A stretch of DNA of 63,949 nucleotides, the filler included, from a bacterium (lineage in GTDB: Bacteria; JAMORN01), in NCBI GenBank assembly GCA_027063545.1. It is 8 parts of 8 records of this genome, joined end to end, with 100 filler letters (N's around TTAATTAATTAA, not from the genome) between each part and the next. Parts side by side here need not be neighbours in the genome. Positions count along the whole stretch, not along the records: positions 1 to 8,300 come from JAMORN010000122.1; 7 more parts are not named here. One strand, given 5' to 3'. Below the pieces are notes generated by a model that saw nothing but the letters and a program-made list of their open reading frames with translations, was not told the DNA's origin and made no database searches. Of this stretch, positions 1 to 27,807 are shown piece after piece. The first letter of the stretch is position 1; each line of letters starts with the position of its first letter. Made by a program: the position numbers and the translations under genes.

Positions 1-94
1 AACTACTAAGGATATATTAGGAGAAAAAGAAGTTAATTGAAAAAAAGTTTATTTTGTTCCTAATTTTTTGATAGGAAAAATTTTAAATTTTTAG
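1..94 (+). CDS. 3' end of a CDS truncated at the window edge, possibly an AAA_14/DUF4143 ATPase C-terminus (code 25)
   Basis: Frame from base 2 reads TTKDILGEKEVN(TGA=G)KKVYFVPNFLIGKILNF-TAG. The TKD...G..V.FVP pattern resembles DUF4143 C-termini (by eye). Confidence 0.4.
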
Positions 95-111
95 TTAAAA
101 ATGGATAGTAA

Positions 112-1128
112 ATGTATTTTAATTGACTAACTTTATGAATAGTTGCACCATCTTGGTGACCAGCAAGATTTTATTCTAAAAGATTAGAAAAGTGTATAAA
201 AAATGCTAAAAAATTGAAATTTAAGCTTAAATTTATGAAACACTCTTTAAATAGTAATTGATATATTTCGGATTCTCCTCAAAATAGAGCAGAGGATATA
301 CATCAGGCTTTTGTTGATCCAGAAGTAGATATTGTAATGACTATGATATGAGGAAATCATTCTTTGCAAGTACTTAAATATTTAGATTATGATTTAATTA
401 AAAGAAACTTTAAACCTTTTGTTGGTTTTTCTGACATAACGGTGCTTCATTATGCAATAATTTCTCAAATATGAAAACAAACATATTATGGTCCAGCCTT
501 TATGACACAATTTTGAGATTTAAGAAAAGAATTAGTAAACTATACATTTTGATATTTTGAAAAAGTTGTTGTGAAAAAGCAAAGGAATGTAATAGTACAA
601 TCAAGTAAGTATTATATAGATGATTTTGTAGATTGGGCTGAAGAAAGCAGATATAGAAAGCTTTATGTTAATAAATGACAACGGTGGCTTAAAAGATGAA
701 AAGCAATTTGACAGATAATATGATGATGTATACCTTCATTGAATCGGGTATTAGGAACAAGATATTGGATAAGTCCAAAAGATAAGATATTTTTTATAGA
801 TATACCTGAAGGACATTGTAGAATAGATGAATGATTGGAGATTCCAGATGTAGATGCTTGTTTTGCACAATTAGATAATGTTGGATTATTTGACGAAATA
901 AAGGGATTGGTAATATCGATTCCTTATAGGTATACTGAGAAAATGAAAAAAGATTTTGAAGATTTGATTTTATATTATACGAGGTGAAAAGATTATCCTA
1001 TCTTGATGGATGTTAATATATGACATATAGATCCTATTGTAAGTATTCCATATTTGTCTAATGTTTTATTAGATTCAGAGAAAGATTTATTTGTTTTAAA
1101 TTGTGAAAAAACTTGAAAAGTAGGATAA
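112..1128 (+). CDS. S66 family peptidase, MccF-like (338 aa, TGA=Gly)
   Basis: ATG112 to TAA1128 is open if 17 in-frame TGA are read as Gly. Motifs: GIVAPS, RAEDIHQAFVDPEV, MIGGNHS, FVGFSDIT (catalytic Ser), TYYGP, IIGGCIPSL, NIGHIDP (catalytic His). Several TGAs fall on conserved Gly positions. Confidence 0.92.
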
Positions 1129-1174
1129 AATTATTATAAGTCAATAGATACAATATAAATATTGAAACAAAAAC

Positions 1175-1214
1175 AAAACTCCTGGAAAGATGATAGAAAA
1201 TCCAGGAGTTTTTT
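1175..1214 (+). terminator. Intrinsic-terminator-like hairpin after the S66 gene
   Basis: Perfect 12-bp inverted repeat AAAACTCCTGGA (1175-1186) / TCCAGGAGTTTT (1201-1212), 14-nt loop, ending in a T-run. Confidence 0.65.
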
Positions 1215-1248
1215 ATTGTAAAAAGATTTATAATATAACAAAGAGGGA

Positions 1249-4200
1249 ATGGAAAAGAGGAAGGGTATAGAAAAAGGTAAGAGGCTAATATCTAGTGTAT
1301 TGATAGCGACAACTTTATTTACGAGTTGTTGATGATGAGGTGGATGATGAGGGTGAGGAGTTGAGGGAAGTAGTGTGGGAATAAGTGTGACGAATAGTGA
1401 TTTTCGAGGTAATCAGCAAAATATAGAAGATGAAGACAGTAAGATAGTGTATTGAAAAATAATAGATGATCCATTAGAAGGGTCAGAAGTAAGAATAAAG
1501 ACAGTAGATGGTTATACATTGTATGAGACGAGAACGGATGGAAGATGAGTATTTTGAGTAGATGTAGAGGAATTAAGAAAAAAATTAGATGAATTTTATG
1601 GGAAAGATGTAGATGTAAATAAGGTAAAGTTGGTAATAGAAGCAGAGGGGTGAGTAGAAATATATACTAGGGACAAATTTAAAGGTAGGATGATGACAAT
1701 AAAGTTAGAAGGAGAAGGTTTAGAAGATATTGTAGTAAATCCGTTATCAACAAAATTAGTAGAAGAGGTAAAGATTCAATGATATAGATTAACAGAGCTG
1801 AATAGGCAAATAGTAGAGCAAGTTATTAAGAATTTGCAGACGAAATATGGATATATGTATGATGTAGATGGAGATTGAAAAATAACGATAAAAGATTTTA
1901 ATAGATATGATCCAGATGAATATGATAGTGGATTAGAGGATAGTTTGAGAGATGAAGGATATTTTAAGAAATTAAAGAAGTGAGAGGAAAATATAGACAC
2001 TACAGAAGATAATTTTGAAAAAATAAGGGAAGTAGTAGAAAAGTTTATTAATACTAATGAGGATATAGATGACTCTAAAATAAAAGAGATAAAAAGTAAA
2101 GAAGAATTGATAAAGGAATTGGAGGCTAAATTGAAAAAGATAGAGGAAGAGATAGAAAGATTAAATAAGGAGATACAAGAGTTGAAAGATAAGTTAAACA
2201 ATGATTCTGGTAGTAAAGAGATATTGGAAGCGATAGAACAGTTGGATGCGAAGAGAGAGGAATTATTAGCAGAGATGTGAGAGATAAAATATTTGTTAAA
2301 TAAAGAGACTTTAACAGAAGAAGAGATAAAGGAGGCAATATGATTAATTAATTGAAACAGAGTGAAAAGGATAACAAGGGGTGTGAGTTATGGAGTATAT
2401 AGATTAGTTAAAGGGGAAGAAAATTTAGAAAATAAGAAAGAAGAACTAGCCAAGCAGTTAAATAATTTGGAAAAGATAAAGGAGGTGTTAGAGGGAGAGA
2501 TAGAAAATATAAAGGAAAATATAGAGAAATTAGGAAAAGAAATTCAGGATAAAGAAATTCAGGATAAAGAAATTCAGATTAAAGAGATAGAAAAAGGAGT
2601 TGAGCAGATAAATAGTCAGATAAAAGATTTAGAGGAAGAGTTGAAGAGATACGAAGAAGATAGAGCTAAAGCTAAAGAGTATTTAGATAGACGGAATAGA
2701 TTGTTAGCTCAAATAGAAGATGTAAAAGAGAATATGGATTATTGGTTTGAAGAAGATGGTAAATACTCTGAAGAATATTTTGATAAGAGACGAGAGTTGG
2801 GTATATTGGATAGTATACCAGGATGATATGAATATAAGTTTTTTGAAAAAAGATGGGAATATAAGGGTTATAATATATTGGTGGAATGATATAGACAAAA
2901 TAGAGATACCCAAACTCCATTTATACTTGTATTATATATAAATTGAGAAAGAAGAGATAGTGAAACGTTATATGTAGAGAATATTTCTGAGGTTAGCAAT
3001 AAAGTTAGTTGATATAACGATTATATAAAGGTAATGATAGACTGGGATATAGCATACGAAAAATATAAAGACTATAAAGTTAGATATGATAAATTGATAA
3101 ATCAGAAAGAAGAGCTAAAAGAAGAGATTTTAAGATTTGTAAAAAAATATGAAAAAGAAGATTGAACATATTATTCGATACCGGAGTTAATAAATAGAAC
3201 TAAAGAAGAAATAAGTAATAGAAGAAAGGAAAAGGATGATAAATTAAGTCTGATAAGAAGGATAAAAGAAGATAAAGAGAGGTTAAAGTCAAAAATGGAA
3301 CAGTTAAAGGAGGAATTAGAACAAAAGAGAAGAGAATTATTAGAGATACAAGAAAAGATAAATAAGATAAAAGAGAAATTAACGCAGTATCAAGTGATAG
3401 TGAAGGAAGAAATGACTAATATAGAGGATTATCTTGCATTTTCAGCAAATAGTAATTTAGAAGAAATTACAAATCAGATTAAGGATAAAGAAGAACAAAA
3501 AAAAGAGTATCAGAAACAAGAAGAGAGTATAAAAAATCAAATAGAGAAGAATAGATTAACAAATGAATTAAGACAGGATGATCCGTTATATTATGATGAA
3601 AATAAAAGAGAGTATATTTATGATATAAATCAAATACCATCGAATCCTACGAGGCTTATAGGGTGATTAAGATATTGAAGTGAATGATATATGAGGACAC
3701 CATATACAATATATATAAAATATGGGATAAATGGTGATGGTAGTAATTATCCTGCGAAGGTATGGGTAGAATATGTAGATGGGGAAGGGGTGAAGATATA
3801 TAAGGAGGAGATAGTGAACAATTATGAGTATAAGGAGTATATAAAATGGAAGTTGAAGGAGGAGATAGAGAATAAGTTGAGATCTCAGTTTGTAGAGGAG
3901 GGACAGTTGAATGTAGGTTGAGAAAAGGTAAGGTATTGGATAAGAAAGGATGATAGTTGAAAATGTTGGGGATGGTATGAGTGGAGGGATATTTTATATA
4001 GAATTAAATGATTTTTGGACAAAAAAGGACTGATAAAGCAGATAGAGACAGAAGTTTTAAATATGCAAAAAGAGCTAAAGGAAGAAACAACAGAGATAAA
4101 TATATATGATTATTTTAGATGGTGATGGATGTGATTTAAAGATGAATTAGGAATATATAATTTAGATATACCAATGTGATATTGTAAAGTAGAATGAAAA

Positions 4201-5304
4201 TATGAAAATATAAGAGAAGAGTACATGAAAGGTATGGAGCAAGTAGTAAATGATGATGAGATAAAGAAGGAGATGAAAGATATAATAATAGAAATGTGAA
4301 ATAAAATATGAAAATGATATAAAGATGGTTTAAAGGATAGTATAAAAGATACTTTCGATGTTTTGTGAACGATTGAAGGTTTGGCAGAAATAGCGGAATG
4401 AACTTGGAATTGAATGGTAGAATGTGTAGGTATAAGTATAGATTTGGCAGGTAGTACTGTGTTTAGTGGAATAGAAAAATTATGTTGATGGATAGGAAAT
4501 AGTTGGTGTGAAGAGAAGGCGAGAACATATAGAGAGACATTTGAATGGAATTTGCAAGTGAAAGATGAAGAAATAAAGAGAGTGATAGATGAAGTTAAAT
4601 GGTTTCTAACGGAATTAGATATAGATATAAAGGATGAAGAGATTTGATATGTATGAGGTTATACAACGTGAGTATTAGTATGATGAGCGTTAGTATGAAG
4701 TATAACAAAACAACCTAGTGTAGTTAGAGCTGTTATGATGAGAGTATTATGAAGAAATAAAGTAATAGTGAAGATAATTAAAAGAGCGATTAGAAAGAAA
4801 GATTATGGATGGATAAAGAAGAATAAATTGAGATTAGAGCAATTATTATGAGTGGAAGATAGTGGTAGATTATGGGAGGTAGGTATGGAGATATTTAAGA
4901 AAATGGAGAAGAATGAGATATTAGACTATATAAAGCAGTTAAAAGAGATAAAATCTTGAGAAGACTTGATAAATGTAGCAAGAAGAGTAGAGTATAGATT
5001 AGATCCAAGGATAGAGTGATGAGCGATAAAGGTGAAATGAGATTATGGATGAGCATGGAATATAATAGGGAAATTGGAGAAGAGTGGATGGAGATATTTA
5101 GAGAAAGAATCGGATAATTTTAGATGAGTAATAGTATATGAGAGTCCGAATGGGAGGTGGAAAGTGAATTTAAGGGAAGTGAGTAATAGTGAGGAGAAAT
5201 TTGAAAGAGCAGGGTATAAGGTAGAAGCTACAATAGATGTGATTGAGATTAAATGAAGTGATAAATATAAAACGGAAATAAAATTTATAATGTTAAAGGA
5301 ATAA
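1249..5304 (+). CDS. Large lipoprotein with polymorphic-toxin-like architecture (1351 aa, TGA=Gly)
   Basis: One frame from ATG1249 (GAGGG upstream) to TAA5304 with no TAA/TAG. Track ORFs 2362-2826, 3295-3666 and 3691-3921 are in-frame pieces split only at TGA. N-terminus is KRLISSVLIATTLFTS-C27 followed by 10 Gly; then coiled coils, a Gly-rich hydrophobic segment (4645-4698) and a compact C-terminal domain. Confidence 0.88.
2536..2580 (+). repeat. 15-nt in-frame tandem repeat x3 (KEIQD-KEIQD-KEIQI)
   Basis: AAAGAAATTCAGGAT twice, then AAAGAAATTCAGATT. Confidence 0.85.
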
Positions 5305-5308
5305 GACT

Positions 5309-5875
5309 ATGGAAAGTAGATATAAATTTTTAGAAAATCCATTTGATAAGAATAATAGTTTAGAGGAAGAATATATACATTATAGGTCAGTAATAGAATA
5401 CAAATTAAATAATGGGGAAATACCTTATTTAGATTGGTGGATAATATTTTTTCAGAGGAAACTAAAAAAAATGGGGATAGATTATAGAAGAGATGTAGAT
5501 ATATTGCCTTATGTATTAGAATATATCTGAGAGCTAATAAAGGAGAAGAAGGTGAAGGTGAATAAGATAGGGATAGAGGAGTATGATGAGCCTAGGAAGG
5601 AGAAGGTGAAGGTAGGGATAGATCCGGATACATGAGAAGATATAATAAAGGAAGTGGAAGTAAGATTTAGGCGGATAGATGAATGAGTATTAGATCCGTG
5701 TGAGATAGAGGATGAAAAGGAGTTAGAGAGAAAGGTAGAGGAATGGAAGAGTAAAACATATGAGTTATATAAGTATTTATTGAAAAAATATGGCAATGAT
5801 GCTGCGGAATATCTGTTATATATTTTGGAAATAAGAAGGACTACATGTTATGAATGAGAGATAAGGATAGAGTAG
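5309..5875 (+). CDS. Putative cognate immunity protein (188 aa, TGA=Gly)
   Basis: Starts 4 nt after the toxin stop with AAGGA upstream. Track ORF 5309-5530 continues through 4 TGA to TAG5875. Highly charged with no signal peptide. The ORF is seen directly; the function is inferred from position. Confidence 0.65.
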
Positions 5876-5899
5876 GCCTATGAAAGAGGCTTTTTTTTT
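5875..5899 (+). terminator. Short hairpin plus T9, possible terminator of the toxin-immunity unit
   Basis: GGCCT-ATGAAAG-AGGC-TTTTTTTTT directly at the immunity gene stop. Confidence 0.5.
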
Positions 5900-6253
5900 G
5901 AGTTAAAATTAGGAATCAAATATATAGAATTCAGATGAAATGTAAAACTAAGTATAGCAGAAGCTAGGTTAATGTTAGAAGCAATAAGAGATCAACTTTT
6001 GCAAACATTAAAAGGTATAAATGATATAAAAGATGTGAAAGACTTAATAAGATTAGCAGAAAAATATCAATATCTGGATCCATTGATAGAAAAGAACGTG
6101 ATATTTGTAAAATGAGATGAGGAATGAGCAATAAAGATAATAGAAAAATTTAGCTACTTTTTTATTGTGATGAAGAGGATTATTTTAAATGAATGAAAGT
6201 TTTTCAAAATTAATCGTAAGATTTCAAGAGAAGTGTACCACTTTAAGAAATAA
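5900..6253 (+). pseudogene. Orphan, truncated paralog of the toxin C-terminal tip
   Basis: The open frame (code 25) encodes LLQTLKGINDIKDVKDLIRLAEKYQYLDPLIEKNVIFVKGDEEGAIKIIEKF. This aligns by eye with toxin residues ILDYIKQLKEIKSGEDLINVARRVEYRLDPRIEGGAIKVKGDYGGAWNIIGKL. Similarity ends near 6151. Internal ATG at 5972, TAA at 6251-6253. Confidence 0.7.
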
Positions 6254-6341
6254 GATTAATTCTAGTATTAAAGAACACTTTATAAGCAGTTAAAAAGTTG
6301 TATATTTTTCTAGGCATTAAGTTTATTATATGTTAATATTA

Positions 6342-6421
6342 TGCACCATCAAGATTTTTGTTTTCATTGTAGTTGGTTGTTAGGTGTTAAATATTTTTAT
6401 TTTATTTATCTTGGTGGTGCA
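6342..6421. repeat. 14-bp inverted repeat with 52-nt loop
   Basis: TGCACCATCAAGAT (6342-6355) / ATCTTGGTGGTGCA (6408-6421). The single mismatch is a G-U-compatible pair on the + strand. Confidence 0.7.
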
Positions 6422-6457
6422 CTTCAAATTTTATTTAGATTAGCTTTTTCTAAATAT

Positions 6458-6485
6458 TTGACAATTTTTTTAAAATAATTATAAA
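6458..6485 (+). promoter_or_regulatory. Sigma70-type promoter
   Basis: TTGACA (6458-6463), 16 nt, TATAAA (6480-6485), about 40 nt upstream of ATG6525. Confidence 0.5.
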
Positions 6486-6524
6486 TAAATTAATGAAGAT
6501 TTTAAAAATTTAACTAATTTTGCT

Positions 6525-7319
6525 ATGTCAGAATTACAAAAAAATCAAGAAATTGAAAGACAACCTGAGACAAAAAAAAGTAAAATTTTTGGGATTAAAA
6601 AACAATTAGCAGCACTTTTAGCAGCAATATGAATATGAGTTTCAGGAGCAGTTGATAATGTAGGAAAGGTGATAATACCTTCAGCGTACGGAACTGAGGT
6701 TAAAACTTATAAACAGATAGAAGATAAGTTGAAGAATTTACAGCCTTGACATTTTTTGATAGTAAAATTATCTTCTAATGAATTAAAGGAATTAAAGAAG
6801 GATTTAAAAGATTGATATGAAATTTCTGTTCTAAAAGATGGAAGAGTAAAAATTATTAGAGTGAAAGAAAAAGGAAATGAGAAAGATTTGTTAAGTTGAT
6901 TAGATAATTTATCTATGTCAGATGATGAATTGAAGCAAATATCATGATTAGATAAATTAGAAAAAAAAGTTTCTCATATAGAAAGATTAGCGATAATGAG
7001 TCCGACACGGAGTATAGATTTGGTGGTATGAAAGTTTGAAGAATTATTTAAACAAAAAAAATATGATGAAATAATTAAATTGTTGAAAGATGCTTATAAA
7101 GCAAATAGTGTAGAAAGTTCTTATGTAGATAGAAAAGAGTGAGAATTATATTTTTGAAAGGATAAACAAGGATGAGTTTGGAAAAATTTTATAGAGATGA
7201 CAGAAAAAAGATTAAAGACTGTATCTGATAAAGGTGAAAAAAAGAAGTTGGAGGAAATTTTAAACTTATTAAAAAATATAAGAGAAATAGTAAAATTTAA
7301 AGATTATGATTTAGCATAG
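6525..7319 (+). CDS. Hypothetical membrane-anchored or secreted protein (264 aa, TGA=Gly)
   Basis: ATG6525 to TAG7319 is open with TGA=Gly. N-terminal hydrophobic segment QLAALLAAIGIGVSGAV contains two TGA-encoded Gly. Confidence 0.75.
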
Positions 7320-7333
7320 TTAGATTTTTTCTC

Positions 7334-8300
7334 ATGAATTTTGAAAAAATAGAACAAATACAAAAATGAAATGAATGAACTGAAAAAAAGGAACATTCAT
7401 TGTTTTCTGAGTTGGAAAATAAGAATAATATTTCAAAAGATTTTTTTGAAAATCAGATAAATAACTTCTTAAATAAAGAATGAATTGTGTGAAAACAAAT
7501 TTTTGAAAATTTTTTAAAATTCTTAAAGAAAAATAATTTATATGATGTAAAAGATGTTATAGCCTCTACGTATTTAATTAGTAAAATTATTGATTTAAAG
7601 AGTCCCCAAGAAGCTAAAAAAATTTTTTATTTGTTAATAAATCGTAAATCTAGTAAATTGTTAGTTTTATTAGGAAAATTTTCTCAATATGTAGATAAAG
7701 CTTATATCTACTATAAGCAGTTAAAAAATGTAGAAACAATTAGTAGATCAAAGTTAGAAAAACAATGAATTAATGCAGAAACTGCTAATAATCGATTTTC
7801 GGAAGTTTTTAAAATTTTTAAACAGGATGAGTATTTAAAAAAGTATTTTGAAAATATAGAAAAGTGAAAAATAAAGGTTTTTGAAGAATTGCTTAATATA
7901 ATAATAAATAAAGTAAAATCTTTTGGTAATGATCAGATAAAATTAACTGAATTAGTTAGTTGAGAAAAGTTAAATGAAGTAAAAATTTTTTTAGAAACTT
8001 TATTTAAGGGAAGGATAGACCAAATCTCTTTAGACGAAGTAAAAACAAAATTTATTTTTTTATCTTTAAAGCAAAGAGTAGCTAGTACTACTCCTAAATA
8101 TCAACAATCTATTGAAACTCAAGCCCAACAAATTTCAGAAAAATATGGAATATCTCAAGATGAGGCATTTATATATGTATTTAATAAGTTCTACCAAGAA
8201 AATCAACAATTTGCTAACAAAATATGAGAGATACCTTCTCAATATAAATGATTGATAGAATCTATTACTAAGAAAGTAGAAGAGCAAATAAAAGTTTCTG
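7334..8300 (+). CDS. Hypothetical protein, 3'-truncated at the fragment end (TGA=Gly)
   Basis: The ATG7334 frame has no TAA/TAG up to 8300, only TGA. Lys/Glu/Phe-rich, helical-looking. Confidence 0.75.
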
Positions 8301-8400
8301 NNNNNNNNNNNNNNNNNNNNNNNNNNNNNNNNNNNNNNNNNNNNTTAATTAATTAANNNNNNNNNNNNNNNNNNNNNNNNNNNNNNNNNNNNNNNNNNNN
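8301..8400. other. Artificial contig linker
   Basis: N44-TTAATTAATTAA-N44 (stops in all six frames). Confidence 0.97.
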
Positions 8401-8491
8401 TATTCTCTACCTCTACATACGCCTTTAAAATAGAGTTAATGCCAACAATGGTTGGAGGTAATATAGGAAGAAAATTACTGCTATTTTTCAT
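8401..8491 (-). CDS. Probable bactofilin N-terminus (truncated)
   Basis: MKNSSNFLPILPPTIVGINSILKAYVEVEN. The TIVG motif and the position directly downstream of an M23 peptidase fit the common M23-bactofilin pair. Confidence 0.5.
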
Positions 8492-8496
8492 AATTT

Positions 8497-9396
8497 TTAA
8501 TCTACTATTAATGTATCTGAATAAAAGAAATGTTTTGGATTTACTTGTTTATTATAAATTCTTACTTCGTAGTGTAAATGAGCTCCTGTAGATATACCAG
8601 TATTACCAATTTCTCCTATCTTTTGCCATCTTTTTACAACATCTCCTTCTTTAACAAAAATTCGGTGTAAATGAGCATAAACTGTTTTATACTTATTATT
8701 ATGCCTAATTATTATTATATTACCATAACTTTTAGAATAATAAGCCTTTTCAATTATTCCATCAGCAGTAGCAAAAACAGGAGTGCCAACTTCTCCGGCA
8801 ATATCTAAGCCTTTATGAAATTCATAAGTTCCATATAAAGGATGTATACGCCATCCAAATCCGGATGTAATATGAGTATTTTCTTTAGGACAAGGGAATA
8901 TAGAAGGCTTTGTTTCTATTTCAAAATTTTTTTGTTTTAGATTTTGAAGGATTTCATATTTTTTATGACTTAAATATCTTAAAAAGTTGTAATTTATATC
9001 ATATACCATTAATGTTCTTGAATAATCTTTATCATTTATTGTGATATAAGCACCACCACCAACTCCGAAGTCTTCTTTACTTTTTATTTGAGGTACAGAA
9101 GCAACAATATAATATTCTGGTAACATATTAGAAGCTAGTTTATCAATTTTTTTATTAATTTTTTTTACAAGATATTTATACATATTTAATTCTTTTTTTA
9201 CTATAGATAATTTAATTGAATAGTAGTCTTTCTCTATTTTTGAAAAGATAAAGCTTCCGTATATAAACATTAAATAAATAATTAAAACAACAACAATAAT
9301 TTTTAAACTATTATATAAATATGAAAAGAGTTTAAAATCAAAAAATTTAATAACAAACTTTTTATTGTTTATTATTAATATGTAATTTTTTATCAT
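8497..9396 (-). CDS. M23 family metallopeptidase with N-terminal TM segment
   Basis: [31 protein letters not shown] motifs. Confidence 0.92.
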
Positions 9397-9954
9397 ATTC
9401 TATCCATGTAGCAAATTTAAACATAAAAAAAGCTATTAAAGCTCCTAGTAAATAACCAAAAATTACATCACTAGGCCAGTGTACTCCTATATAAATTTTG
9501 GATAAAGCAACTAAAATGCCAAATAAATAATATATTGTAATAAATAATTTTTAATTTCTTTATTAGATTTTACTTTTTCTTTTATAAATAAAAAAAGAAA
9601 AATAGTTATATATCCCCATGTTATAACATGGTTAGATGGAAAAGAAAAAGATCTCTTTAGGCCTTCTAAACATTTATAACTTTCAAAGTTAAAAAAAATA
9701 CTACAAGGTCGTGGGATTTTATATAAATATTTTAATAAATTTCCAATAAAATCAACAATACCTACCCCAACAACTAATAGTAGAAAAAAGATAAAAAAAC
9801 TTTTTTTATATGTCAAGAAAAAATAAACACTTATCAAACTAAACATAATTATTAAAAAAATTCTATTGGATATAGTTTTAAAAAAGATATTCAAAATATT
9901 TATATCGATTGAATTTATTATATTAAAAAGATATCTTTCCCATTCAAATATCAT
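9362..9954 (-). pseudogene. PAP2 family phosphatase, frameshifted (real or sequencing error)
   Basis: Motifs 1-2 (KYLYKIPRP, SFPSNH) lie in ORF 9511-9954. Motif 3 ([13 protein letters not shown]) lies in another frame ending at TAA 9362. One extra A in the A5 run near 9548-9552 would join them. Confidence 0.75.
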
Positions 9955-9964
9955 ATTCTCAATA

Positions 9965-11266
9965 TTAATCTTTTCTTACATATTTATTTTTATAAAAAGT
10001 ATATAAAACATCTCCTTTAAATTCCATTCCAATAAAAGGAGAATTTTTAGACCTTGAATGAAATTTATTTTTATCTATTTTTATTGACTTTTCTATATCT
10101 ACAATTGTAAAATTAACAGTTTCACCTTCTTTTATTTTTATTTCTTTTAAGCCAAGTATTTTTCTAGGATTTATACTTAATAATTCTACAATTTTAGTTA
10201 AAGGAAGTTTTTCCTTATGATATAGTATATCACAAACAACATTAAAGGCAGTTTCAAGACCAATAACGCCAAATTTAGCAAGTTCAAATTCATTATCTTT
10301 TTGAGATGGAGTGTGAGGAGCATGGTCAGTGGCAATAACATCAATAACTCCATTTTTTATTCCTTCAATTATAGCTTTTCTATCTTCTTCTGTTCTTAAA
10401 GGAGGATTCATTTTTAAATTACCATCTAATTTTTCTAAAAGAGCATCCTCTGTTAGACTTATATAGTGGGGGGTTGTCTCAGATGTTATTTTAACTCCTT
10501 TTTTCTTCATCATTTCAATTACTTCAACAGAATATTTTGTAGAGACATGAGCAATATGTATTTTGTAATTTAAATATTCTGCTATAACAGCATCTCTATA
10601 CACATATATGCTTTCAGAAATAGGAGGAATCCCCTTTATCCCCCATTTGCTTGAAACCTTTCCTTCATTTATATGCCCCCCTTTTAAAAAAGGATCTTCA
10701 CAATGGGAGATTATTAGTCCATCAAACATAGAAGCATACTTTAGAGCATTTATCATGATCTCTGTATTTAAAATGCTATCACCATCATCACTAAAGGCTA
10801 TTGCTCCTGCCTCTTTTAATGTTAGCATTTCTGATAAAAATTCACCTTTTCTTTCTTGAGTTATAGAGGCTATAGGATATATATCTATAGGTGTTTTTTC
10901 TGCTTTTTTTAAGATATCTTTTATAATTGAAGGATTATCTATAGGAGGATTAGTGTTGGGCATAATTGCAACACCAGTAAAGCCTCCATAAAAGGCTGCT
11001 AATGCTCCTGTTTCAATAGTTTCTTTATTTGACTCTTTAAAATCTCTAAAATGAACATGCATATCAAAAAAAGCAGGAAGTAAATACATAGAATCCTGAG
11101 ATTCTATTGTTAAGACATCTTTATCATCTTTCAGAAAATCAGTTTTTGCTATCTTCTGAATAATACCATCTTCTACATAAATATATCCTTTTTTGAAATT
11201 TTTATCATTAGAAGAGTAATATTTAATATTTTTTATATAAAGTTTTTTAAACCTCTTTATGCTCAT
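9965..11266 (-). CDS. pyrC: Dihydroorotase
   Basis: DMHVHFR, MPNTNPP, HIAHVS, KMNPPLR, IATDHAPH; operon context. Confidence 0.95.
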   Translation of the reverse strand: MSIKRFKKLYIKNIKYYSSNDKNFKKGYIYVEDGIIQKIAKTDFLKDDKDVLTIESQDSMYLLPAFFDMHVHFRDFKESNKETIETGALAAFYGGFTGVAIMPNTNPPIDNPSIIKDILKKAEKTPIDIYPIASITQERKGEFLSEMLTLKEAGAIAFSDDGDSILNTEIMINALKYASMFDGLIISHCEDPFLKGGHINEGKVSSKWGIKGIPPISESIYVYRDAVIAEYLNYKIHIAHVSTKYSVEVIEMMKKKGVKITSETTPHYISLTEDALLEKLDGNLKMNPPLRTEEDRKAIIEGIKNGVIDVIATDHAPHTPSQKDNEFELAKFGVIGLETAFNVVCDILYHKEKLPLTKIVELLSINPRKILGLKEIKIKEGETVNFTIVDIEKSIKIDKNKFHSRSKNSPFIGMEFKGDVLYTFYKNKYVRKD

Positions 11267-12192
11267 CCTCTTCCTCCAAGAAGTTTATAGAGTATAGCCA
11301 TTCTCATTGCAACCCCATTTGTTACCTGAGGGAGTATAACACTATCTTTGCTGTCTGCTACTTTTGAGTCTATTTCAACACCTCTATTCATAGGACCAGG
11401 ATGCATTATAAGTGCATTACCTTTTATTCTTTCGTATCTTTCACTAGTTAATCCAAAAAAATCATTATATTCTTTAATAGAAGGAAATAATCCTTTTTTT
11501 TGTCTTTCTAATTGTATTCTTAAATTATTTATAACATCAACACCTTCTATTGCTTTATCCATATCAGTATATACCTCATCAACACCTAGAATATAAGGAT
11601 CTTCAGGCAGAAGTGTTTTAGGTCCGCAGATTCTCACCTTTGCACCTAGTTTTTTTAAAGCATATATATTACTTCGTGCTACCCGAGAGTGTTTAATATC
11701 ACCTGCTATTAAAACAACCTTACCTTTTAAATCGCCTAAGTTTTCTATCATTGTAAATATATCAAGAAGTGCCTGCGTTGGATGCTCATGAGCACCATCA
11801 CCAGCATTTATTATAGCAGAGCTATTAAAAGTAGAGATATATCTTGGTAAATCAACTAAAGAGTGTCTTACTACTATAGCATCTATTTTCATAGCCTCAA
11901 TATTTAAAATTGTATCTTTAATACTTTCTCCTTTATTTAAAGAAGAAGTAGAAGCAGAAAAGTTTATAACATCACAGCCCAATCTTTTTTCAGCAACTTC
12001 AAAAGATACTCTGGTTCTTGTAGAAGGTTCAAAAAATAGATTTACCACAGTTTTTCCCTTTAATGTGGGAACTGACTTAACAGGCTTTTCTAATACTTCT
12101 TTAAAACTTTTTGCTAGTTCTACTAATTCAAGAATATCTTCTTTAGATAATTCTTCTATACCAATGAGATGTTTAGGATAAAGTTTTTCCAT
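11263..12192 (-). CDS. pyrB: Aspartate carbamoyltransferase catalytic subunit
   Basis: FFEPSTRT, HEHPTQALLD, MHPGPMNRGVEI. The TGA stop overlaps the pyrC ATG. Start placed at ATG12192 after a GAAGGAG SD. Confidence 0.96.
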   Translation of the reverse strand: MEKLYPKHLIGIEELSKEDILELVELAKSFKEVLEKPVKSVPTLKGKTVVNLFFEPSTRTRVSFEVAEKRLGCDVINFSASTSSLNKGESIKDTILNIEAMKIDAIVVRHSLVDLPRYISTFNSSAIINAGDGAHEHPTQALLDIFTMIENLGDLKGKVVLIAGDIKHSRVARSNIYALKKLGAKVRICGPKTLLPEDPYILGVDEVYTDMDKAIEGVDVINNLRIQLERQKKGLFPSIKEYNDFFGLTSERYERIKGNALIMHPGPMNRGVEIDSKVADSKDSVILPQVTNGVAMRMAILYKLLGGRG

Positions 12193-12712
12193 AAAAAACT
12201 CCTTCATCCTTATCTATTTCTTTTAAATGAACTTCTATTGATATATTCTTTTCAACTTGTATTTGTCTTCCTTTATATTCAACAAAACAAGGAATTTCCC
12301 TTTCACCAATTCTGTCTATAATAGCAAGAACTTTTATTTTTTTTGGCCTTCCAAACGAAAAGATTGCTTCTATAGCTGCTCTTATTGTTCTTCCAGTATG
12401 TACCACATCATCGACTAATATTATCTCTTTATCTTCTACATCAAAAGGAATTTCTGAACCCTCTACAGAAGGATGAACAAATTTCCGGGAAAAGTCATCT
12501 CTATAAAATGTAATATCTAAAGCACCAAATAATAAATCAACACCTTCTTTATTTTTTATAATATCTTTTATTCTTTTACCTATTATATCCCCTCTTCTTT
12601 TTATACCAATTATTGCCAAATTTGAAAAGTTATCATGTTCTTTTTCTATTATTTCAAAAGCAAGGCGTTCTATAATTTTGTTAAGTTGCTTTTCATTTAT
12701 AACTGTTTTCAT
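12173..12712 (-). CDS. pyrR: Bifunctional pyr operon regulator / UPRTase
   Basis: GIKRRG, LDITFYRDD, LVDDVVHTGRTIRAA, GRP. Confidence 0.93.
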   Translation of the reverse strand: MKTVINEKQLNKIIERLAFEIIEKEHDNFSNLAIIGIKRRGDIIGKRIKDIIKNKEGVDLLFGALDITFYRDDFSRKFVHPSVEGSEIPFDVEDKEIILVDDVVHTGRTIRAAIEAIFSFGRPKKIKVLAIIDRIGEREIPCFVEYKGRQIQVEKNISIEVHLKEIDKDEGVFYGKTLS

Positions 12713-12750
12713 AACACAGAAATCCTTTTTAATAAAATACAAAAATTTCT

Positions 12751-13929
12751 TTATAATAAAATACCAATTTTTACATCTAAATGCTCTTTTAGATCTAAAT
12801 AAATAGGAGGATCAATTCTATCATTATTTTTACTTTTAAATAAAACAATTAAAGGTCTTTCAGGTTTATTTTCATCCACTTCAACAACAGCCCCTTTATA
12901 TCCTAGTAAAGTTTTGTCATTTGCTTCTTTTATATATATTAAACTACCCACAGGATAAACAGGTATTGTTTTTAGAAATTCTTCAACAATTACCTTATTA
13001 AGATGAGATCCAGCAACTTTTATTATAATTTTTAAAGCCTCTTCAGGAGTTTTGGGTTTAGAATATGGCCTTGGTGATATCATTGCTACATAGGTATCTG
13101 CTACAGTCACTATTTCAGCATACCTATGAATTATATTAGGGTCAAAATCTTTTCTATATGGATATTCATTTCTCCCCTTTAGTCCTCTTGGATAACCAGA
13201 ACCATCTTGGCGTTCATGATGTTGATATGCTACATGTGCAGATAAAAGTGAAATATCGGAATTTGATTTTAAAATTTCAAAACCATAAATTGGATGTTCT
13301 TTTATTAATGAAAATTCTTCAAATGTAAGTTTACCCTTTTTGTTTATTATTTCATTTGGTATAACTACCATACCTATATTATGAAGAAGTGCTCCAATTG
13401 CTAACTCCTCAAGTTCATATTTATTAAATTGAAATCTTACTCCTAAATGAACACTTATTACAGTAACATCTATTGCATGTTGATAAAAATAGTTGTTTAA
13501 CCCTCTTATTAAAGATAAATTTATTAAATTTGAAGTATCTGTTAAAACATTTTCTATAATTCCAGAGACAACATTTTTTATTTTGGAAGGAATTATGATA
13601 TTTTTAAAGTCTTTAGATTTTAACATTTGTTTTAGATTTTTTACTGTATCCTTTTGGGTTTCTACCATTTTTTTTAGATTTTCAACACTTTCTCTTAATA
13701 CTTTATTTGTTTGAAGCATTGTTATTTCAGATAGAGTCTCCTGAGGTGTAATCCCCTTTGTGTCATCATCAATAATATAAAGCCCAGGATAGCCTAATTT
13801 TTTAATTTTTTCAATATACATTTGAGTTAAAACTTCACCTCTTGCTAGAAGTAAATCTCCTTTCTCTGAGATAATAGATTTCCCTAAAATCATTCCAGGT
13901 TTTACTTCATCTATGGGATAGTATATCAT
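12751..13929 (-). CDS. HD-GYP domain protein (HD dyad reads HN)
   Basis: VKPGMILGK N-terminus, HHERQDGSGYPRGL, VADTY, LLHNIG. Confidence 0.88.
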   Translation of the reverse strand: MIYYPIDEVKPGMILGKSIISEKGDLLLARGEVLTQMYIEKIKKLGYPGLYIIDDDTKGITPQETLSEITMLQTNKVLRESVENLKKMVETQKDTVKNLKQMLKSKDFKNIIIPSKIKNVVSGIIENVLTDTSNLINLSLIRGLNNYFYQHAIDVTVISVHLGVRFQFNKYELEELAIGALLHNIGMVVIPNEIINKKGKLTFEEFSLIKEHPIYGFEILKSNSDISLLSAHVAYQHHERQDGSGYPRGLKGRNEYPYRKDFDPNIIHRYAEIVTVADTYVAMISPRPYSKPKTPEEALKIIIKVAGSHLNKVIVEEFLKTIPVYPVGSLIYIKEANDKTLLGYKGAVVEVDENKPERPLIVLFKSKNNDRIDPPIYLDLKEHLDVKIGILL

Positions 13930-14918
13930 ATCTTCACCTTTTCTAATATTTTCTCTATAATATACTTTGTGTTTATATTATCCATTTTTGCCTGAAAGTT
14001 TAAAATAATTCTATGATTTAAAACCTCATATAAAATATTATCTATATCACTTTTTTCTACCATAAATTTACCATCAAGTAGTGCTTTAATCTTTGCTCCT
14101 TTTAAAATTGTTTCTGTTCCTCTTGGTCCAACACCCCACTCCACATATTTTTTTACTTCATCTATTTTTGATAGTTCCTTTCTTGTTTCTTGAACTATTT
14201 TTATTATATACTCTATTAATTTTTCTGAAATAACTACATTGTCAACAAAATTTATAATTTCAAATATATCATTTTTATTTAAAATCTTTTCAATAACAAT
14301 CTTTTCTCTTTTAAATGTATTTATTAAAATTTCTTTTTCTTCTTCAAAATTAGGATATGATAACTCAAGAGAAAAAGCGAATCTATCAAGTTGAGCCTCT
14401 GGAAGAGGATATGTACCCTCTTGTTCTAATGGATTTTGTGTTGCAATTACCATAAATGGAAGATCAAGTTTATATAGAAAATTTCCTACATTTATCTGTT
14501 TTTCCTGCATTGCTTCCAATAAAGCAGATTGGGTTTTAGGAGGGGTTCTGTTAATTTCATCTGCAAGAAGAATATTTGTAAAAATAGGCCCTTTTTGAAA
14601 TTTAAATATTTTTTGATTTGTGGTTGGATCTATATCAATAATTTCTGTGCCAATAATATCAGAAGGTATTAAATCTGGAGTAAATTGTATTCTTTTAAAG
14701 TCCAAATCTAAAACATGAGCAAATGTTTCTGCTAAAAGACTTTTTGCAAGTCCAGGAACTCCTATTATTAATATATGACCCTCTGTAAAAAGGGCATAAA
14801 ATAAAAAATCTATTATTCTATCTAACCCAACTATTTTTTTATGTATTTCTTTTTTAGCAGTATTAATTTTCTCTAAAATATTCTCTATCTTTCTATTATT
14901 TTTAATAATAGTTTCCAT
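13926..14918 (-). CDS. MoxR family AAA+ ATPase
   Basis: GVPGLAKS, RIQFTPDL, LADEINRTPPKTQSALLEAM, ATQNP, YPLPEAQLDRF. Confidence 0.95.
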   Translation of the reverse strand: METIIKNNRKIENILEKINTAKKEIHKKIVGLDRIIDFLFYALFTEGHILIIGVPGLAKSLLAETFAHVLDLDFKRIQFTPDLIPSDIIGTEIIDIDPTTNQKIFKFQKGPIFTNILLADEINRTPPKTQSALLEAMQEKQINVGNFLYKLDLPFMVIATQNPLEQEGTYPLPEAQLDRFAFSLELSYPNFEEEKEILINTFKREKIVIEKILNKNDIFEIINFVDNVVISEKLIEYIIKIVQETRKELSKIDEVKKYVEWGVGPRGTETILKGAKIKALLDGKFMVEKSDIDNILYEVLNHRIILNFQAKMDNINTKYIIEKILEKVKI

Positions 14919-14998
14919 AATATTATTTTTCTCTTAAAAAATGACATTTAATAATTTATTTTTTCTGTAGAATTTAGTAATAAAAATAAAAAGTATAT

Positions 14999-16494
14999 AT
15001 GAAAAAAGAAAAGGAATTATCAAAATTTCTTTATAATCTTATAAATAATTCAAAAAAGTTTTTTATTTTAGGCTTTATTTTTGGAGTATTTTATGGAATA
15101 TTTAATACATTAAGTTTATGGATATTTGGTTCTCTTTTTAATATTATATTTTCCTCTCAAGATGAAATAAACTCTTTATCTTCAATTACAAATTATTCTT
15201 CTTTTATAGGAAATTTAAATGAATATTTAAAAGGGATTTTATACCATTACATTTACTCGCCAGATAAATTAATAATGATTAAAAAATTAACAGTTATTAT
15301 TCTACTTTTATTTGTGTTAAAGAATTTTTTTAGATATTTAACAAATTTAAGTTTATCTTATTTCGTATTCAATATGAGGGGAACTTTGAAGAAGTATATT
15401 GCTGAATCTATTTTAAAACGAGATGAGGATTTTTTAGGAGATAAAACTAAGGGTGAGTTATACTCTTTATTTAATAGTGATATAGGAATGTTTCAGGATA
15501 ATATAAAGTTTATATCTATGGATATTGTTGTTCAGCCTATAACTATTATAACTATTTTATATCTTCTTTTTTCTATTTCTGTAAAACTAACCTTATTATC
15601 TTTACTAATTTTTCCATTAGTTTCTTTATTTATATATTTTGTGAGTTTAAGTTTAAGAAGAAAGTCTAAACGCTCTCTTGAAAGAATTGGAAAATCAAAT
15701 GCTTTATTCTCCGAGATATTGGAAGGTTTTATTATTATAAAGAGTTTTTTAGTAGAAAAAATATTTTTAAAAAAGTTTTATAAAGTTATAGATGAAGAGA
15801 TTAAATATATTCTAAAACAAACAAAATTGGAACTTTTATCTTCTCCTGTAAATGAGACTATTTCTATAACAATTGGAATTTTAATATTTATATATGGTAG
15901 TAAATTAGTATTTGTGGAAAAATTTTTATCTGGAGAGGATTTTGTAAGGTTTTTTACTTTAATATTTGGTCTTATTGCTCCTATAAAACTTTTGGGATAT
16001 ATGCACAATAAGTATAATATAGCAATGGGGGCCTTAGAAAGGATTTATAGTTTTATAAAGATAAACCAAGAGGAAAGTAAAAAAAGAAGAGCTATTGAAT
16101 ATAAAGAATTTTCATTTAATAAGAGTATTAAATTTAAAAATGTTTTCTTTAAATATTCTAATGGTGAAAATTGGACATTAGAGGATTTAAATATAGAGAT
16201 ATTTAAAGGAGATAAAATAGCACTTATTGGTAAAAGTGGGAGTGGAAAAACTACATTTATAAAATTATTATTAAAGTTTTTGAAACCAACAAAGGGAGAA
16301 ATTTTTATCGATAATATAAATTTAAATGAGATAAAAACAGAAAGTTTAAGAAAGAATATAAGTTATATGCCTCAAGAGATTTTTATTTTCAATGATACAT
16401 TAGAGAATAATATACTTTTAAACACAAATATTTCTTCTGATACTTATAAAGATTTAATAACTAATCTTTCTTTAGATAAAATAAAAGAAAGGGG
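14999..16494 (+). CDS. MsbA-like ABC exporter (TMD+NBD), 3'-truncated
   Basis: Multi-TM domain followed by Walker A GKSGSGKT; cut by the linker. Confidence 0.88.
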
Positions 16495-16594
16495 NNNNNN
16501 NNNNNNNNNNNNNNNNNNNNNNNNNNNNNNNNNNNNNNTTAATTAATTAANNNNNNNNNNNNNNNNNNNNNNNNNNNNNNNNNNNNNNNNNNNN
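16495..16594. other. Artificial contig linker
   Basis: N44-TTAATTAATTAA-N44. Confidence 0.97.
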
Positions 16595-18550
16595 ACCTTT
16601 CCAAAGAAGACCCATATCTGCCAACAGGCTATATGCTTTCCCACTTTCATTTTGATTACCAACAGGTACAGGTGCTAAATTAGAGTAAGCGAACTTAGCA
16701 GAAAGGCCTATTGCTAAATTATTAAGTAATTTCAACCCCCAATGGAGTCCTGCATTCATATCATAGGCTCTAAATGTACCTAAAATCTGACCTGTTTCAT
16801 CTGTATGAGTAATTGATCCATAGGATAAATAAGTTATAGAAAATCCTAATGTTCCTATTTTTATACCTGGAATTATAATAGATGTATATAAAAGGTATAA
16901 ATCTTTATAATTTAAAAGAGGAAGTACCTTATGATAACTAAATCCTAAAATAGGCTTTGACATTTTATATATATATAAATTATCATCTGCAGATGCTACT
17001 ATATATCCCTTTTGATATACTGCAGAATTTAAAGAGTTATTTATAAACATAACCTCTGTTAGAGAGGTATTATTCTCTTTTTTATACTTTAAAATCTTTG
17101 TTTTTGTATAAAATATTAAAGGATCACTGTTTATTATTCCTACAACATCCTCTCCCTTTACTTTTATCCTTTTTATTTTATTCCTCTTAATATTATAGAT
17201 ATAAATAGCCCCTTTACCGCCAATATAGAGAGTACTATCATCAAACTTAACTATACAATTTATCTCGGGATTATAAAGAAAAGAAGAAAGATCTTTTAAA
17301 AATGAAAGATAAAACTCTTTCTTTTTATCCTCTACTTTTTTTGCTACAATATTATTTATAGAATCTAATACCTTAAAATTAAAACTATCACTATAGAAGA
17401 AAGTGTAATCTGGTCTTAAACTATCAATATCTAAGGATGAATCACACATAACAACCTTCACTTCTAAAAAATTAAGTTTATGTTTTTGAGAATAATCTTT
17501 AATTTGCTCCTCTATTTTCTTAATACTATCCTCTACATTTAAAACATAATCAGAATCTATCTTTGAAGAATTTAAAGAATCTCTAACAAAAATAGAATCA
17601 TTTATTACAATTATTACATTTTTTATTATCCTAATACTATCAATCTTTGCTTTATTTTTATTATACTCTGATATATCAAAAGAAATTAATCCTTTCTTTT
17701 TACTTATAATTATAATTCTATCTTTATCTATAAAACTAAAGCCCTTTATATCATTTATTATCATTTTTAATGGTTTTGAAAAATAATAATCTAAATTAAA
17801 TTTATTTTGATCTAATATATAAAAACCTTGATCTGTTAAAATCCATAACTTACCATCTGGACTTTCAGAAATATATTTTATAGTTCCATTTAACCCCTCT
17901 TTAGAGTTTATTACATTCCATCTCTCATTTTTAAAATACACTAATGAATGTTGTGTTATTAAATAAATATAACCTCTTTTAGACTTATATATATCAATTA
18001 TAGAATCTTTTATTATCATACTATATGGCATATTTAAAACCCAAATATCTTTCTCTGGAATATCCTCTGTTATAGAATTAAATTCCATTATTTTACTTTT
18101 ATACTCCTCTAAATTTTCTTTATCTGTAACCCATCTTTCAATTAATCCTTCTATAGAATCATCTTCTCCTAAATACCAAACCTCATAGTTATAAAATTTT
18201 CCCATTTGCCATCTATACAACCCCTTATTTGTTAAAACATAAAGAAGATTATTATTTTCTTCAGAAGGAAAAATAACCTTTTTTATAACAATAGAAGTAT
18301 CCTTTAAACTATTAAGAACCCAATCATTTGCTAAAGGAGAAAATCCTAAACCTGCTGGATTATAATATAAACTAAATGGATCATCTGCTATGGCGACATT
18401 TGCCTCCCCCATTCCTGTTGCTCTTGCTCCAACAGGGATGTACATATATTGAAGACCACTTTCACTTACAGCAAAAATTTTATTTAATAATAGCGTATTT
18501 AAACTTATTAAAATTAACAACATTAAATTTAACCTATTAACTCTCTTCAT
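16595..18550 (-). CDS. PorV/PorQ (UPF0164)-like outer-membrane protein with large inserted beta-propeller-like region, 3'-truncated
   Basis: Signal peptide; IPVGARATGMGEANVAIADDPFSLYYNPAGL; barrel strands resume about 480 aa later (GTLGFSITYLSYG...AIGLSAKFAYSNL...ADMGLLW). Confidence 0.75.
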
Positions 18551-19049
18551 ATATATCTTCCCATTTAGAATTTACAAATTTTATTCTTTCTTTAGTTTCT
18601 ATTAAAGTTGCATCAAATGTCCCTTTAATTTTACATTTACAACCTAAATGAAAAGGAGGTATTAAAGAAGTATTTTCAACAATATCTCTTCTTCTTAAAT
18701 AATAATTATCAATATTTTTGCAAGTTTCACAAGAACAATTATCCTTCTCATATACAAAAAAAACAACTCCAGATTTATCCCCCTCTTCTATTTCTTTTAT
18801 ATTCTCTTCTAAAATATTAAAATACTCATCAACTAAGCTCTCATCTTTGCCTATTTTTCTTACGAAATCAAGCATTTCATCTTTTGATGGCCTTTCTTTT
18901 TTAAGCTTTTCTCTAGGAGAAACCCTTATAATAGAATAAGTCCCTGAATGATAAATTTTAGGAGTTTCTTCCTCTTTAGGAAGAAATATTATAACTAAAA
19001 AGCCTATAAAAAAAAGTATAATGAAAAAAAATATTAGAGGTGCTAACAT
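18537..19049 (-). CDS. Membrane-anchored hypothetical protein with MuF-like Cys/His motif
   Basis: N-terminal TM; CSCETC...IPPFHLGCKC. Confidence 0.7.
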   Translation of the reverse strand: MLAPLIFFFIILFFIGFLVIIFLPKEEETPKIYHSGTYSIIRVSPREKLKKERPSKDEMLDFVRKIGKDESLVDEYFNILEENIKEIEEGDKSGVVFFVYEKDNCSCETCKNIDNYYLRRRDIVENTSLIPPFHLGCKCKIKGTFDATLIETKERIKFVNSKWEDIYEES

Positions 19050-19089
19050 AGTATTTTTAAAATAATATTTTTTTAAGAAAAAATAAACT

Positions 19090-19677
19090 TTAATCTTCTA
19101 TCATTTTTAATAAAAGTTCATTACTTTCAATAGCAGAAAGTGTAAGAACTTTTGTTGAAATTGGCGGAAATTTTTCTACATCTTTTGTAAAATCACCTAC
19201 TACAATAACATTATCGCCTAATTTTATCTTTTGAACTACATCAAACGAATCTATTCCACCAAGACCACTTACTGAAATAAGAAATTTCTCTTTGTTTTTT
19301 AACACATATTCTATCAAAAGCTTTTTTATTTCCTTAGAATCCACACATTCTGCTATGTATTTATAATCTTTTAAAATACTATCTATATTATCCTCATCTA
19401 ATCTTTTTTTTAAGACTCTTATTTTTATTTCAGAATTGACCTTTCTTAATTTTTCCGATAAAGCATCTACTTTAAACTTTCCAATATCCTCTTTATCATA
19501 AAGTTGCCTGAAAATATTACTCTCCTCAACAATATCAAAATCAATCAATAAAATCTCACCCAACCCTGATTTTGCCATTATATAAGAAAGCCATGAACCC
19601 AATCCACCCACACCAACCACTGCTAATTTTTTATTTTTTAACTTATCTTTTACTAATTTATAATCTAAATTCTCCAT
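19090..19677 (-). CDS. thiF: ThiF/MoeB family adenylyltransferase (ThiS-adenylyltransferase-like)
   Basis: VGVGGLGS, DFDIVEESNIFRQ, IGKFKV, ECVD. Confidence 0.8.
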   Translation of the reverse strand: MENLDYKLVKDKLKNKKLAVVGVGGLGSWLSYIMAKSGLGEILLIDFDIVEESNIFRQLYDKEDIGKFKVDALSEKLRKVNSEIKIRVLKKRLDEDNIDSILKDYKYIAECVDSKEIKKLLIEYVLKNKEKFLISVSGLGGIDSFDVVQKIKLGDNVIVVGDFTKDVEKFPPISTKVLTLSAIESNELLLKMIED

Positions 19678-19678
19678 A

Positions 19679-20632: not shown

Positions 20633-20633
20633 G

Positions 20634-21392: not shown

Positions 21393-21422
21393 CCTTCTCT
21401 CCTTTTTATCTTTAATATTACA

Positions 21423-21451
21423 AAAATAGTGATTTTAATGATATTTGTCAA
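21423..21451 (-). promoter_or_regulatory. Possible sigma70 promoter of the sufC/sufB-like operon
   Basis: Minus strand TTGACA, 17 nt, TATTTT upstream of the AGGAG SD. Confidence 0.4.
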
Positions 21452-21490
21452 GAAAAAAAATAGAAAATAAAGTAATAGAAACAAAAAAAA

Positions 21491-22108: not shown

Positions 22109-22155
22109 AAATATTTTCCTTATATTGTTTGCCTTTAATTTAATTAATATAAAAT

Positions 22156-22185
22156 AAAAAAGGGAGGTTTGACAACCTCCCTTTT
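22156..22185 (-). terminator. Intrinsic terminator
   Basis: AAAAGGGAGGTT-TGAC-AACCTCCCTTTT perfect stem with A/T flanks, about 55 nt after the stop at 22239. Confidence 0.85.
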
Positions 22186-22238
22186 GAAAAAAATTTATAA
22201 AATATTTTTATAGATTATTACCTCTCTGATTCTTCTTA

Positions 22239-24599: not shown

Positions 24600-24635
24600 C
24601 TTTTTATTTCCTCCCATTAAATTTTTTAACTAGCA

Positions 24636-27792: not shown

Positions 27793-27807
27793 AACTCTAT
27801 AATATTT

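Follow-up and report, generated by a model that had tools for sequence, protein, structure and literature searches.

The window analysed here (63,949 bases from the bacterial assembly GCA_027063545.1) is composed of eight fragments of 7.3-8.3 kb each, which were joined artificially and do not form a single molecule. The first of these (hereafter fragment 1, contig JAMORN010000122.1) is predicted from its sequence to encode an intact S66 LD-carboxypeptidase, a 1351-aa coiled-coil protein resembling a surface lipoprotein (ORF2; ORF, open reading frame) and four proteins that could not be assigned to any family (ORF3 to ORF6; Table 1). These genes are interrupted throughout by TGA codons, and the evidence presented below argues that in fragment 1 UGA is read as glycine at 96 positions (translation table 25), while UAA and UAG act as terminators. 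We consider it highly probable that fragment 1 is a stand-alone contig of a table 25 organism, likely a member of the Absconditabacterales or BD1-5, which was brought together with the sequences of another bacterium.

With coverage measured as stop-to-stop frames of at least 100 aa, the treatment of TGA as a sense codon raised the covered proportion of fragment 1 from 38% (under the standard table 11) to 96%, whereas fragments 2-8 were already covered to 94-99% under table 11 and did not change; the gain in coding density for which the initial annotation had proposed a comparison is thus confined to fragment 1. Under table 11 the plus strand of this contig consists of short broken frames (the longest of 154 aa), which agrees with the earlier description of its genes as hidden from the standard code. 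All five TGA-sense ORFs that had been described (the S66 gene, ORF2, ORF3, ORF5 and ORF6) were recovered, and the four complete ones terminate in TAA or TAG as had been claimed, the fifth running off the contig; beyond these we identified a sixth ORF (ORF4) and, at the contig start, a 5'-truncated ORF that also carries a TGA. Altogether, the six ORFs contain 96 in-frame TGA codons in 2561 (a number exceeding that of all GGN codons combined) and not a single in-frame TAA or TAG, the latter two being found exclusively as the stops of the complete ORFs (5/5). The use of TGG is normal (29 of the 2561 codons), also as initially annotated. Since the density of TAA and TAG in the two off-frames of 1249-5304 amounts to 0.108 per codon, a frame of 1351 codons devoid of both would be expected by chance with a probability of ~1e-67, and chance can therefore be excluded.

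Table 1. Coordinates of the features in fragment 1 and layout of the window (TGA counts refer to in-frame codons; gene products are predicted).
Feature	Position	Strand	Description
Fragment 1	1-8300	+	complete 8300-nt contig; all genes on + strand; TGA = glycine (predicted)
3' end of gene cut by contig start	2-94	+	one in-frame TGA; TAG at 92-94 (table 25 translation, frame 2)
S66 LD-carboxypeptidase / MccF-like serine peptidase	112-1128	+	338 aa, 17 TGA, stop TAA
Terminator-like hairpin after S66 gene	1179-1208	+	8-bp GC-rich stem, then TTTTTT; RNA fold -11.6 kcal/mol
ORF2	1249-5304	+	1351 aa, 53 TGA, stop TAA
ORF3	5309-5875	+	188 aa, 4 TGA, stop TAG; start 4 nt past ORF2 stop
Terminator-like hairpin and T run at end of ORF3	5874-5892	+	sole consensus-scan site in 1-8300; shuffle mean 0.7
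ORF4	5972-6253	+	93 aa, 3 TGA, stop TAA; short paralogue of a portion of the C-terminal module in ORF2
ORF5	6525-7319	+	264 aa, 10 TGA, stop TAG; N-terminal hydrophobic segment
ORF6	7334-8300	+	322 aa or more, 9 TGA; continues past contig end
Artificial joiner	8301-8400		N44 + TTAATTAATTAA + N44; non-biological sequence
Six further identical joiners	16495-16594, 24636-24735, 32768-32867, 40377-40476, 48481-48580, 56534-56633
Fragments 2-4	8401-16494; 16595-24635; 24736-32767
Fragments 5-8	32868-40376; 40477-48480; 48581-56533; 56634-63949

Translated across its TGA codons, the product of the S66 gene matched both Pfam domains of the family (Peptidase_S66: E 1.2e-33, 116.3 bits, cut-off 25; Peptidase_S66C: E 7.7e-18, 65.7 bits, cut-off 23.7; the cut-offs being Pfam gathering scores) and could be aligned over its full length with MccF-like chains of the PDB (E 3.8e-35). 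We regard it as a predicted member of peptidase family S66. In an alignment of 94 rows, Ser107 was conserved in all and His305 in 92, and the column of Asp230 was occupied by D in 50 and by E in 42; we take these three residues to be the catalytic triad of the family. The TGA-coded Gly304 lies immediately N-terminal to the conserved His305, in a column holding G in 87/94 rows, and forms part of the motif NI-TGA-HIDP, which, together with TMI-TGA-GNHS (residue 80) and QII-TGA-TGA-CIP (residues 204-205), was found as previously reported. The protein thus shares with the MccF and LdcA peptidases both domains as well as the Ser, the His and the acidic residue, and differs from the LdcA equivalog (NF008424) by its low score (55 bits, as compared to a cut-off of 378); its substrate may be a murein tetrapeptide or a microcin-like compound. 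It also matched phrog_6292, a group of unassigned function, at 1.4e-19.

The search for homologues of this protein used a query in which X replaced every TGA, so that it had no influence on the residues found at the TGA columns. Among 93 homologues (the window's own protein being excluded), the 17 TGA columns held G in 958, W in 59 and a gap in 114 of 1581 cells, and G was the top residue in 14 of them. Six of the relatives (P0002-P0005, P0038 and P0044) carry W at otherwise invariant Gly columns and have an overall W content of 4.6-8.3%, from which we infer that they stem from recoded genomes stored under table 4. In the remaining 87 standard-looking homologues, G occupied 931 of 1369 non-gap cells and W only 5, the summed log-odds being +40.6 bits for Gly, -30.6 for Ser (the next best residue) and -63.0 for Trp. 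Furthermore, in solved MccF-like structures from standard-code bacteria a G stands opposite the TGA codons of the GG-x-x-S, IIGG and GH motifs, and the TGG columns of the S66 alignment hold W in 175/372 cells. The initial annotation had preferred glycine to tryptophan, and had named as adverse outcomes TGA columns aligning with Trp and an absence of homology across the TGA codons; the alignment sides with glycine, and neither adverse outcome occurred.

A second and larger body of TGA codons is provided by ORF2, whose product carries a lipobox-like LFTSC motif immediately before a linker of ten glycines (1330-1359). An N-terminal domain containing a DxDxDG-like loop comes next, then two long coiled coils, globular inserts, a hydrophobic segment of the glycine-zipper type and, at the C-terminus, a conserved alpha/beta module of ~130 aa. 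The alternation of TGA with GGN in the linker (three TGA, two GGN, two TGA, one GGN, one TGA, one GGN; i.e. 6 TGA and 4 GGN) is exactly that initially described. The only relative of this protein, P0096, is 48% identical over 67% of its length, sharing the N-terminal two thirds and lacking the C-terminal part, and is stored with 4.5% W and 2.1% G. At the 53 columns where ORF2 has TGA, P0096 shows W in 23 and G in 8, and at the 59 columns where ORF2 has GGN it shows W in 15 and G in 5, which amounts to 23 swaps between TGA and GGN in the two genes. The C-terminal module yielded 17 homologues in an exhaustive HMMER search (mostly short proteins), in which the columns with TGA or GGN in the query mix G and W (e.g. 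8 W / 6 G, 9 G / 7 W), whereas in the two conserved TGG columns 15/16 and 13/16 rows have W and none has G. Three of these homologues have a normal W content, and they present G at the VKGD column. The same module is echoed in ORF4, residues 6-60 of which are 43% identical (E 5e-9) to residues 1221-1276 of ORF2 (4909-5076); at the DNA level the repeat (5025-5075 / 6100-6150) has an identity of 75%, and two in-frame TGA are retained in both copies at the same Gly positions.

The amino-acid composition of fragment 1 is normal under table 25 only: Gly then makes up 7.1% and Trp 1.1% of residues (6.2% and 0.8%, respectively, in the standard-code fragments 2-8), whereas under table 4 Gly would fall to 3.3% and Trp would reach 4.9%. 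The public copies of the fragment 1 proteins nevertheless follow the latter reading and are mistranslated, W standing at each of the 17 TGA positions in P0001 (112-1128) and at each of the 53 in P0095 (1249-5304). P0096 and most homologues of the C-terminal module look mistranslated in the same way. According to the available part of PMC13695967, a common coding-density heuristic compares tables 11 and 4 only, and the W-for-TGA copies fit a heuristic limited in this manner.

The C-terminal module of ORF2 was modelled with a pLDDT of 87, and a fold search with the model recovered nothing in PDB or BFVD at a threshold of E <= 0.001; the strongest match, a non-significant one, was to a chain of an E. 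coli contact-dependent inhibition (CDI) complex (E 0.046; TM 0.43, by target length). Purely as a lead, the arrangement of ORF2 and ORF4 could be said to recall a surface protein with a conserved N-terminus, a variable C-terminus and spare C-terminal cassettes; the short homologues of the module may equally be gene-calling artefacts in recoded genomes. Assignment of ORF2 to the SMC, Rad50, tape-measure or ATG17 families was considered and rejected, the matches being due to coiled-coil composition (residues 190-800) and lying far below the cut-offs. A 15-nt tandem repeat (4.5 copies, 2521-2596) encodes KEIQD repeats in the first coiled coil.

In regard to the source of fragment 1, the available portions of PMC13695967 and PMC8629427 place table 25 solely in Absconditabacteria and Gracilibacteria (GTDB class JAEDAM01, orders Absconditabacterales and BD1-5), and the former describes for these lineages the loss of release factor 2 (RF2) and a tRNA-Gly(UCA). 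By analogy, UGA would be decoded in the source organism by a tRNA-Gly whose anticodon is UCA and RF2 would be absent, and the source would either belong to the Patescibacteria class in which Absconditabacterales and BD1-5 are placed or be a mobile element from a cell of that class. In an S66 tree built with every W masked, the window protein was recovered in a clade of five rows, the other four of which all look recoded (SH-aLRT 99), and this clade was nested within a well-supported one of 49 rows, among them a protein named Candidatus Saccharimonadales; two more recoded-looking rows had an unresolved position at the base of the latter. The recoded S66 set may be of one origin. On the basis of the code and of this gene tree, an Absconditabacterales (SR1)/BD1-5 lineage appears to be the most likely source. 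Like the table 25 genomes of Absconditabacteria and Gracilibacteria, fragment 1 has frequent UGA at glycine columns, UAA/UAG stops, UGG for Trp and a low GC content (27.6%); table 11 breaks up its proteins and table 4 mistranslates them.

Several observations weigh against this interpretation or limit its reach. Three of the 17 TGA columns of the S66 alignment (147, 292 and 335) are variable rather than Gly-dominated, and the homologues are machine-predicted proteins, some of them mistranslated themselves. A change of CGA/CGG to Trp is predicted for Absconditabacteria (PMC8629427, part available), and fragment 1 lends it no support: there are 3 CGA and 5 CGG in its 2561 codons, of which the five that could be checked face E/R/K, H, S, R and Y, and never W; they are too few to choose between SR1 and BD1-5. 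The contig carries no ribosomal or other marker gene, which leaves the lineage unproven, and ARAGORN found no tRNA gene in the whole window, so that the decoding mechanism outlined above is borrowed from known table 25 lineages. Finally, a scan of genome contigs retrieved a single relative, a 42%-identical S66 gene (L001, 1877-2917) on a standard-code contig of a metagenome-assembled genome titled 'uncultured archaeon', which is uninformative on the source. Given that S66 peptidases act on bacterial murein peptides, this title or bin may be wrong; moreover, the scan used exact 8-residue query patterns, and its single match is no evidence that relatives are absent.

The companion sequences present a different picture. 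The family scan covered 27 of the 44 ORFs that reach 150 aa under table 11 in fragments 2-8, and the genes recognised include those for dihydroorotase and aspartate carbamoyltransferase of pyrimidine synthesis, for biotin carboxylase, glycogen phosphorylase, a NuoF-like subunit, SufBD, GMP synthase, LepA, signal peptidase, FapA and BatD. In these fragments 38 ORFs of 150 aa or more are complete; they end in TAA (32), TAG (3) and TGA (3), and two of the three TGA stops are ATGA overlaps with the start of the next gene (11263-11266 and 13926-13929, - strand). All three are followed by another stop 2-5 codons on, for which AT-richness could account. The LepA (53498-55309) has at most 72% identity to any stored protein, its best named relatives (63-64%) belonging to Bacteroidota, Nitrospinota, KSB1, Calditrichota and others; it lies on fragment 7, which is merely an excerpt of a contig of 27,082 nt. 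These genes indicate a metabolically complete, low-GC (25-31%) and standard-code bacterium of an undescribed lineage outside the candidate phyla radiation (CPR).

As the fragments are joined solely by artificial linkers, and fragment 1 is a whole contig, its ORF2 protein being recorded on one of exactly 8300 nt, nothing physical ties it to the rest of the window. Its tetranucleotide profile (correlation with the other fragments of 0.60-0.74, as compared to 0.75-0.91 within fragments 2-8) marks it as an outlier, it differs from the remaining fragments in the extreme purine bias of its coding strand (G 21.4%, C 6.2%), and not one exact word of at least 20 nt is common to it and them. The format of the linkers suggests that all eight fragments come from one assembly, and the simplest account of fragment 1 and fragments 2-8 taken together is that this assembly is mixed (mis-binned). 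A precedent is found in the available part of PMC8629427, in which a Codetta screen encountered contigs of Absconditabacteria within Chloroflexi assemblies; there, as here, a UGA-recoding contig travels with the contigs of a standard-code bacterium, the difference being that the companion in our case is a low-GC bacterium whose LepA is so distant from stored proteins.

The alternative that fares best, albeit an improbable one, is that fragment 1 derives from a mobile element (phage, prophage or plasmid) of a table 25 host and not from the host chromosome. The available part of PMC10746230 describes phages and prophages of Absconditabacteria and Gracilibacteria that share code 25, and they resemble fragment 1 in their dense in-frame TGA and in the almost complete lack of annotation under table 11. 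The absence of a family for 4/6 ORFs, the shortness of the contig and the location of all its genes on one strand would fit such an origin, as would the match of the S66 protein to a PHROGs group and the weak tape-measure matches of ORF2 (4.8e-5 to 4e-3). The latter, however, fall within the coiled coils, which equally match SMC and Rad50 below cut-off, and no terminase, portal, capsid, tail, integrase or replication gene was found in Pfam, PHROGs or NCBIfam, which sets fragment 1 apart from the described elements. Furthermore, blastn in distant mode (1-8000) gave no match in 50,697 GenBank phage records or 72,556 PLSDB plasmids, tblastn of ORF2 against GenBank phages was likewise without a match, and the model of the C-terminal module had no viral structure match at E <= 0.001.

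We hold it very unlikely that fragment 1, instead of being a contaminant by chance, is biologically tied to the bacterium of fragments 2-8, be it as a replicon with UGA=Gly (a phage, a plasmid or an island) or as the genome of an attached episymbiont. If this were true, its strongest form would entail two genetic codes in or on one cell, and the pairing would name a host for an uncultured table 25 lineage. Slightly less credible still is the narrower proposition that fragment 1 resided in the same cell, as a recoded island, phage or plasmid within a standard-code host. Its merits are that the fragments were supplied together, that their GC contents are similar (27.6% for fragment 1 and 24.6-30.9% for fragments 2-8) and that stop-codon-recoding phages of standard-code hosts are known (bioRxiv 10.1101/2021.08.26.457843, part available). 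Set against these are the artificial linkers, the outlying tetranucleotide profile, the want of long common words, the absence of a CRISPR-like array from the window (as judged by a tandem-repeat scan), the lack of phage hallmarks and the clustering of the S66 gene with recoded sequences and CPR-like proteins; moreover, a cell with RF2 and without a suppressor would be unable to produce an ordinary peptidase of the housekeeping type whose gene has 17 UGA.

The reading of UGA as tryptophan (table 4, as used by Mycoplasmatales, some insect endosymbionts and two Minisyncoccia lineages of Patescibacteria) seems scarcely tenable. Such lineages share with fragment 1 a UGA that is sense, a low GC content and the same gain in density (coding density being alike under tables 4 and 25), the code is reported within Patescibacteriota (PMC13695967, part available), and the public collection stores the window's proteins with W at every TGA. 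The residue at UGA in fragment 1 is nonetheless Gly and not Trp, as seen from the near absence of W at the S66 TGA columns (with its log-odds of -63 bits), from the distorted composition and from the TGG columns that stay W without G while TGA columns mix the two; besides, the lipoprotein linker would then read CWWWGGWWGWG, which is implausible. The possibilities that the region consists of decayed pseudogenes from an organism with the standard code, or that UGA is decoded as selenocysteine or occasionally read through, may be dismissed, for although table 11 does give a field of short broken frames, in-frame TGA is plentiful and in-frame TAA/TAG nil (at the chance probability calculated above for ORF2 alone), the Ser, His and acidic residue of the S66 protein are intact, TGA positions are kept across paralogues and orthologues, and Rfam found neither a selenocysteine insertion sequence (SECIS) nor any other RNA element in 1-8300 at E <= 0.1.

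With a table 25 organism as the preferred source, the significance of fragment 1 resides mainly in annotation and in the quality control of assemblies, as the TGA=glycine code is already known and the contig adds a further case. Under the default table 11 it looks nearly gene-free, and under the fallback table 4 all 96 UGA glycines turn into tryptophan. As seven of the eight fragments follow the standard code, a choice of code made per genome would miss fragment 1; the code has to be tested contig by contig, and fragment 1 ought to carry a flag marking it as foreign to the remaining assembly. In addition, it contributes sequences (i.e. the S66 peptidase, the large lipoprotein-like surface protein and the family of the C-terminal module) for a poorly sampled, uncultured and probably episymbiotic group.

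Among the remaining features of fragment 1, searches of Pfam, PHROGs and NCBIfam with ORF3 to ORF6 gave nothing that passed the cut-offs, and the hairpin downstream of the S66 gene was found by direct reading, the consensus terminator scan having missed it owing to its 14-nt loop. ORFs called across the joiners (e.g. 7334-8356 and 16547-18550) are partly artefacts, the extension of the last ORF of fragment 1 (8301-8356) being N-linker translated as X. The base composition of the contig (A 43.4, T 29.0, G 21.4 and C 6.2%) shows an extreme purine bias of the coding strand, with a GC skew of 0.55 and just 2.1% C at third codon positions, and the codons GGC and TGC do not occur at all among its 2561 codons.

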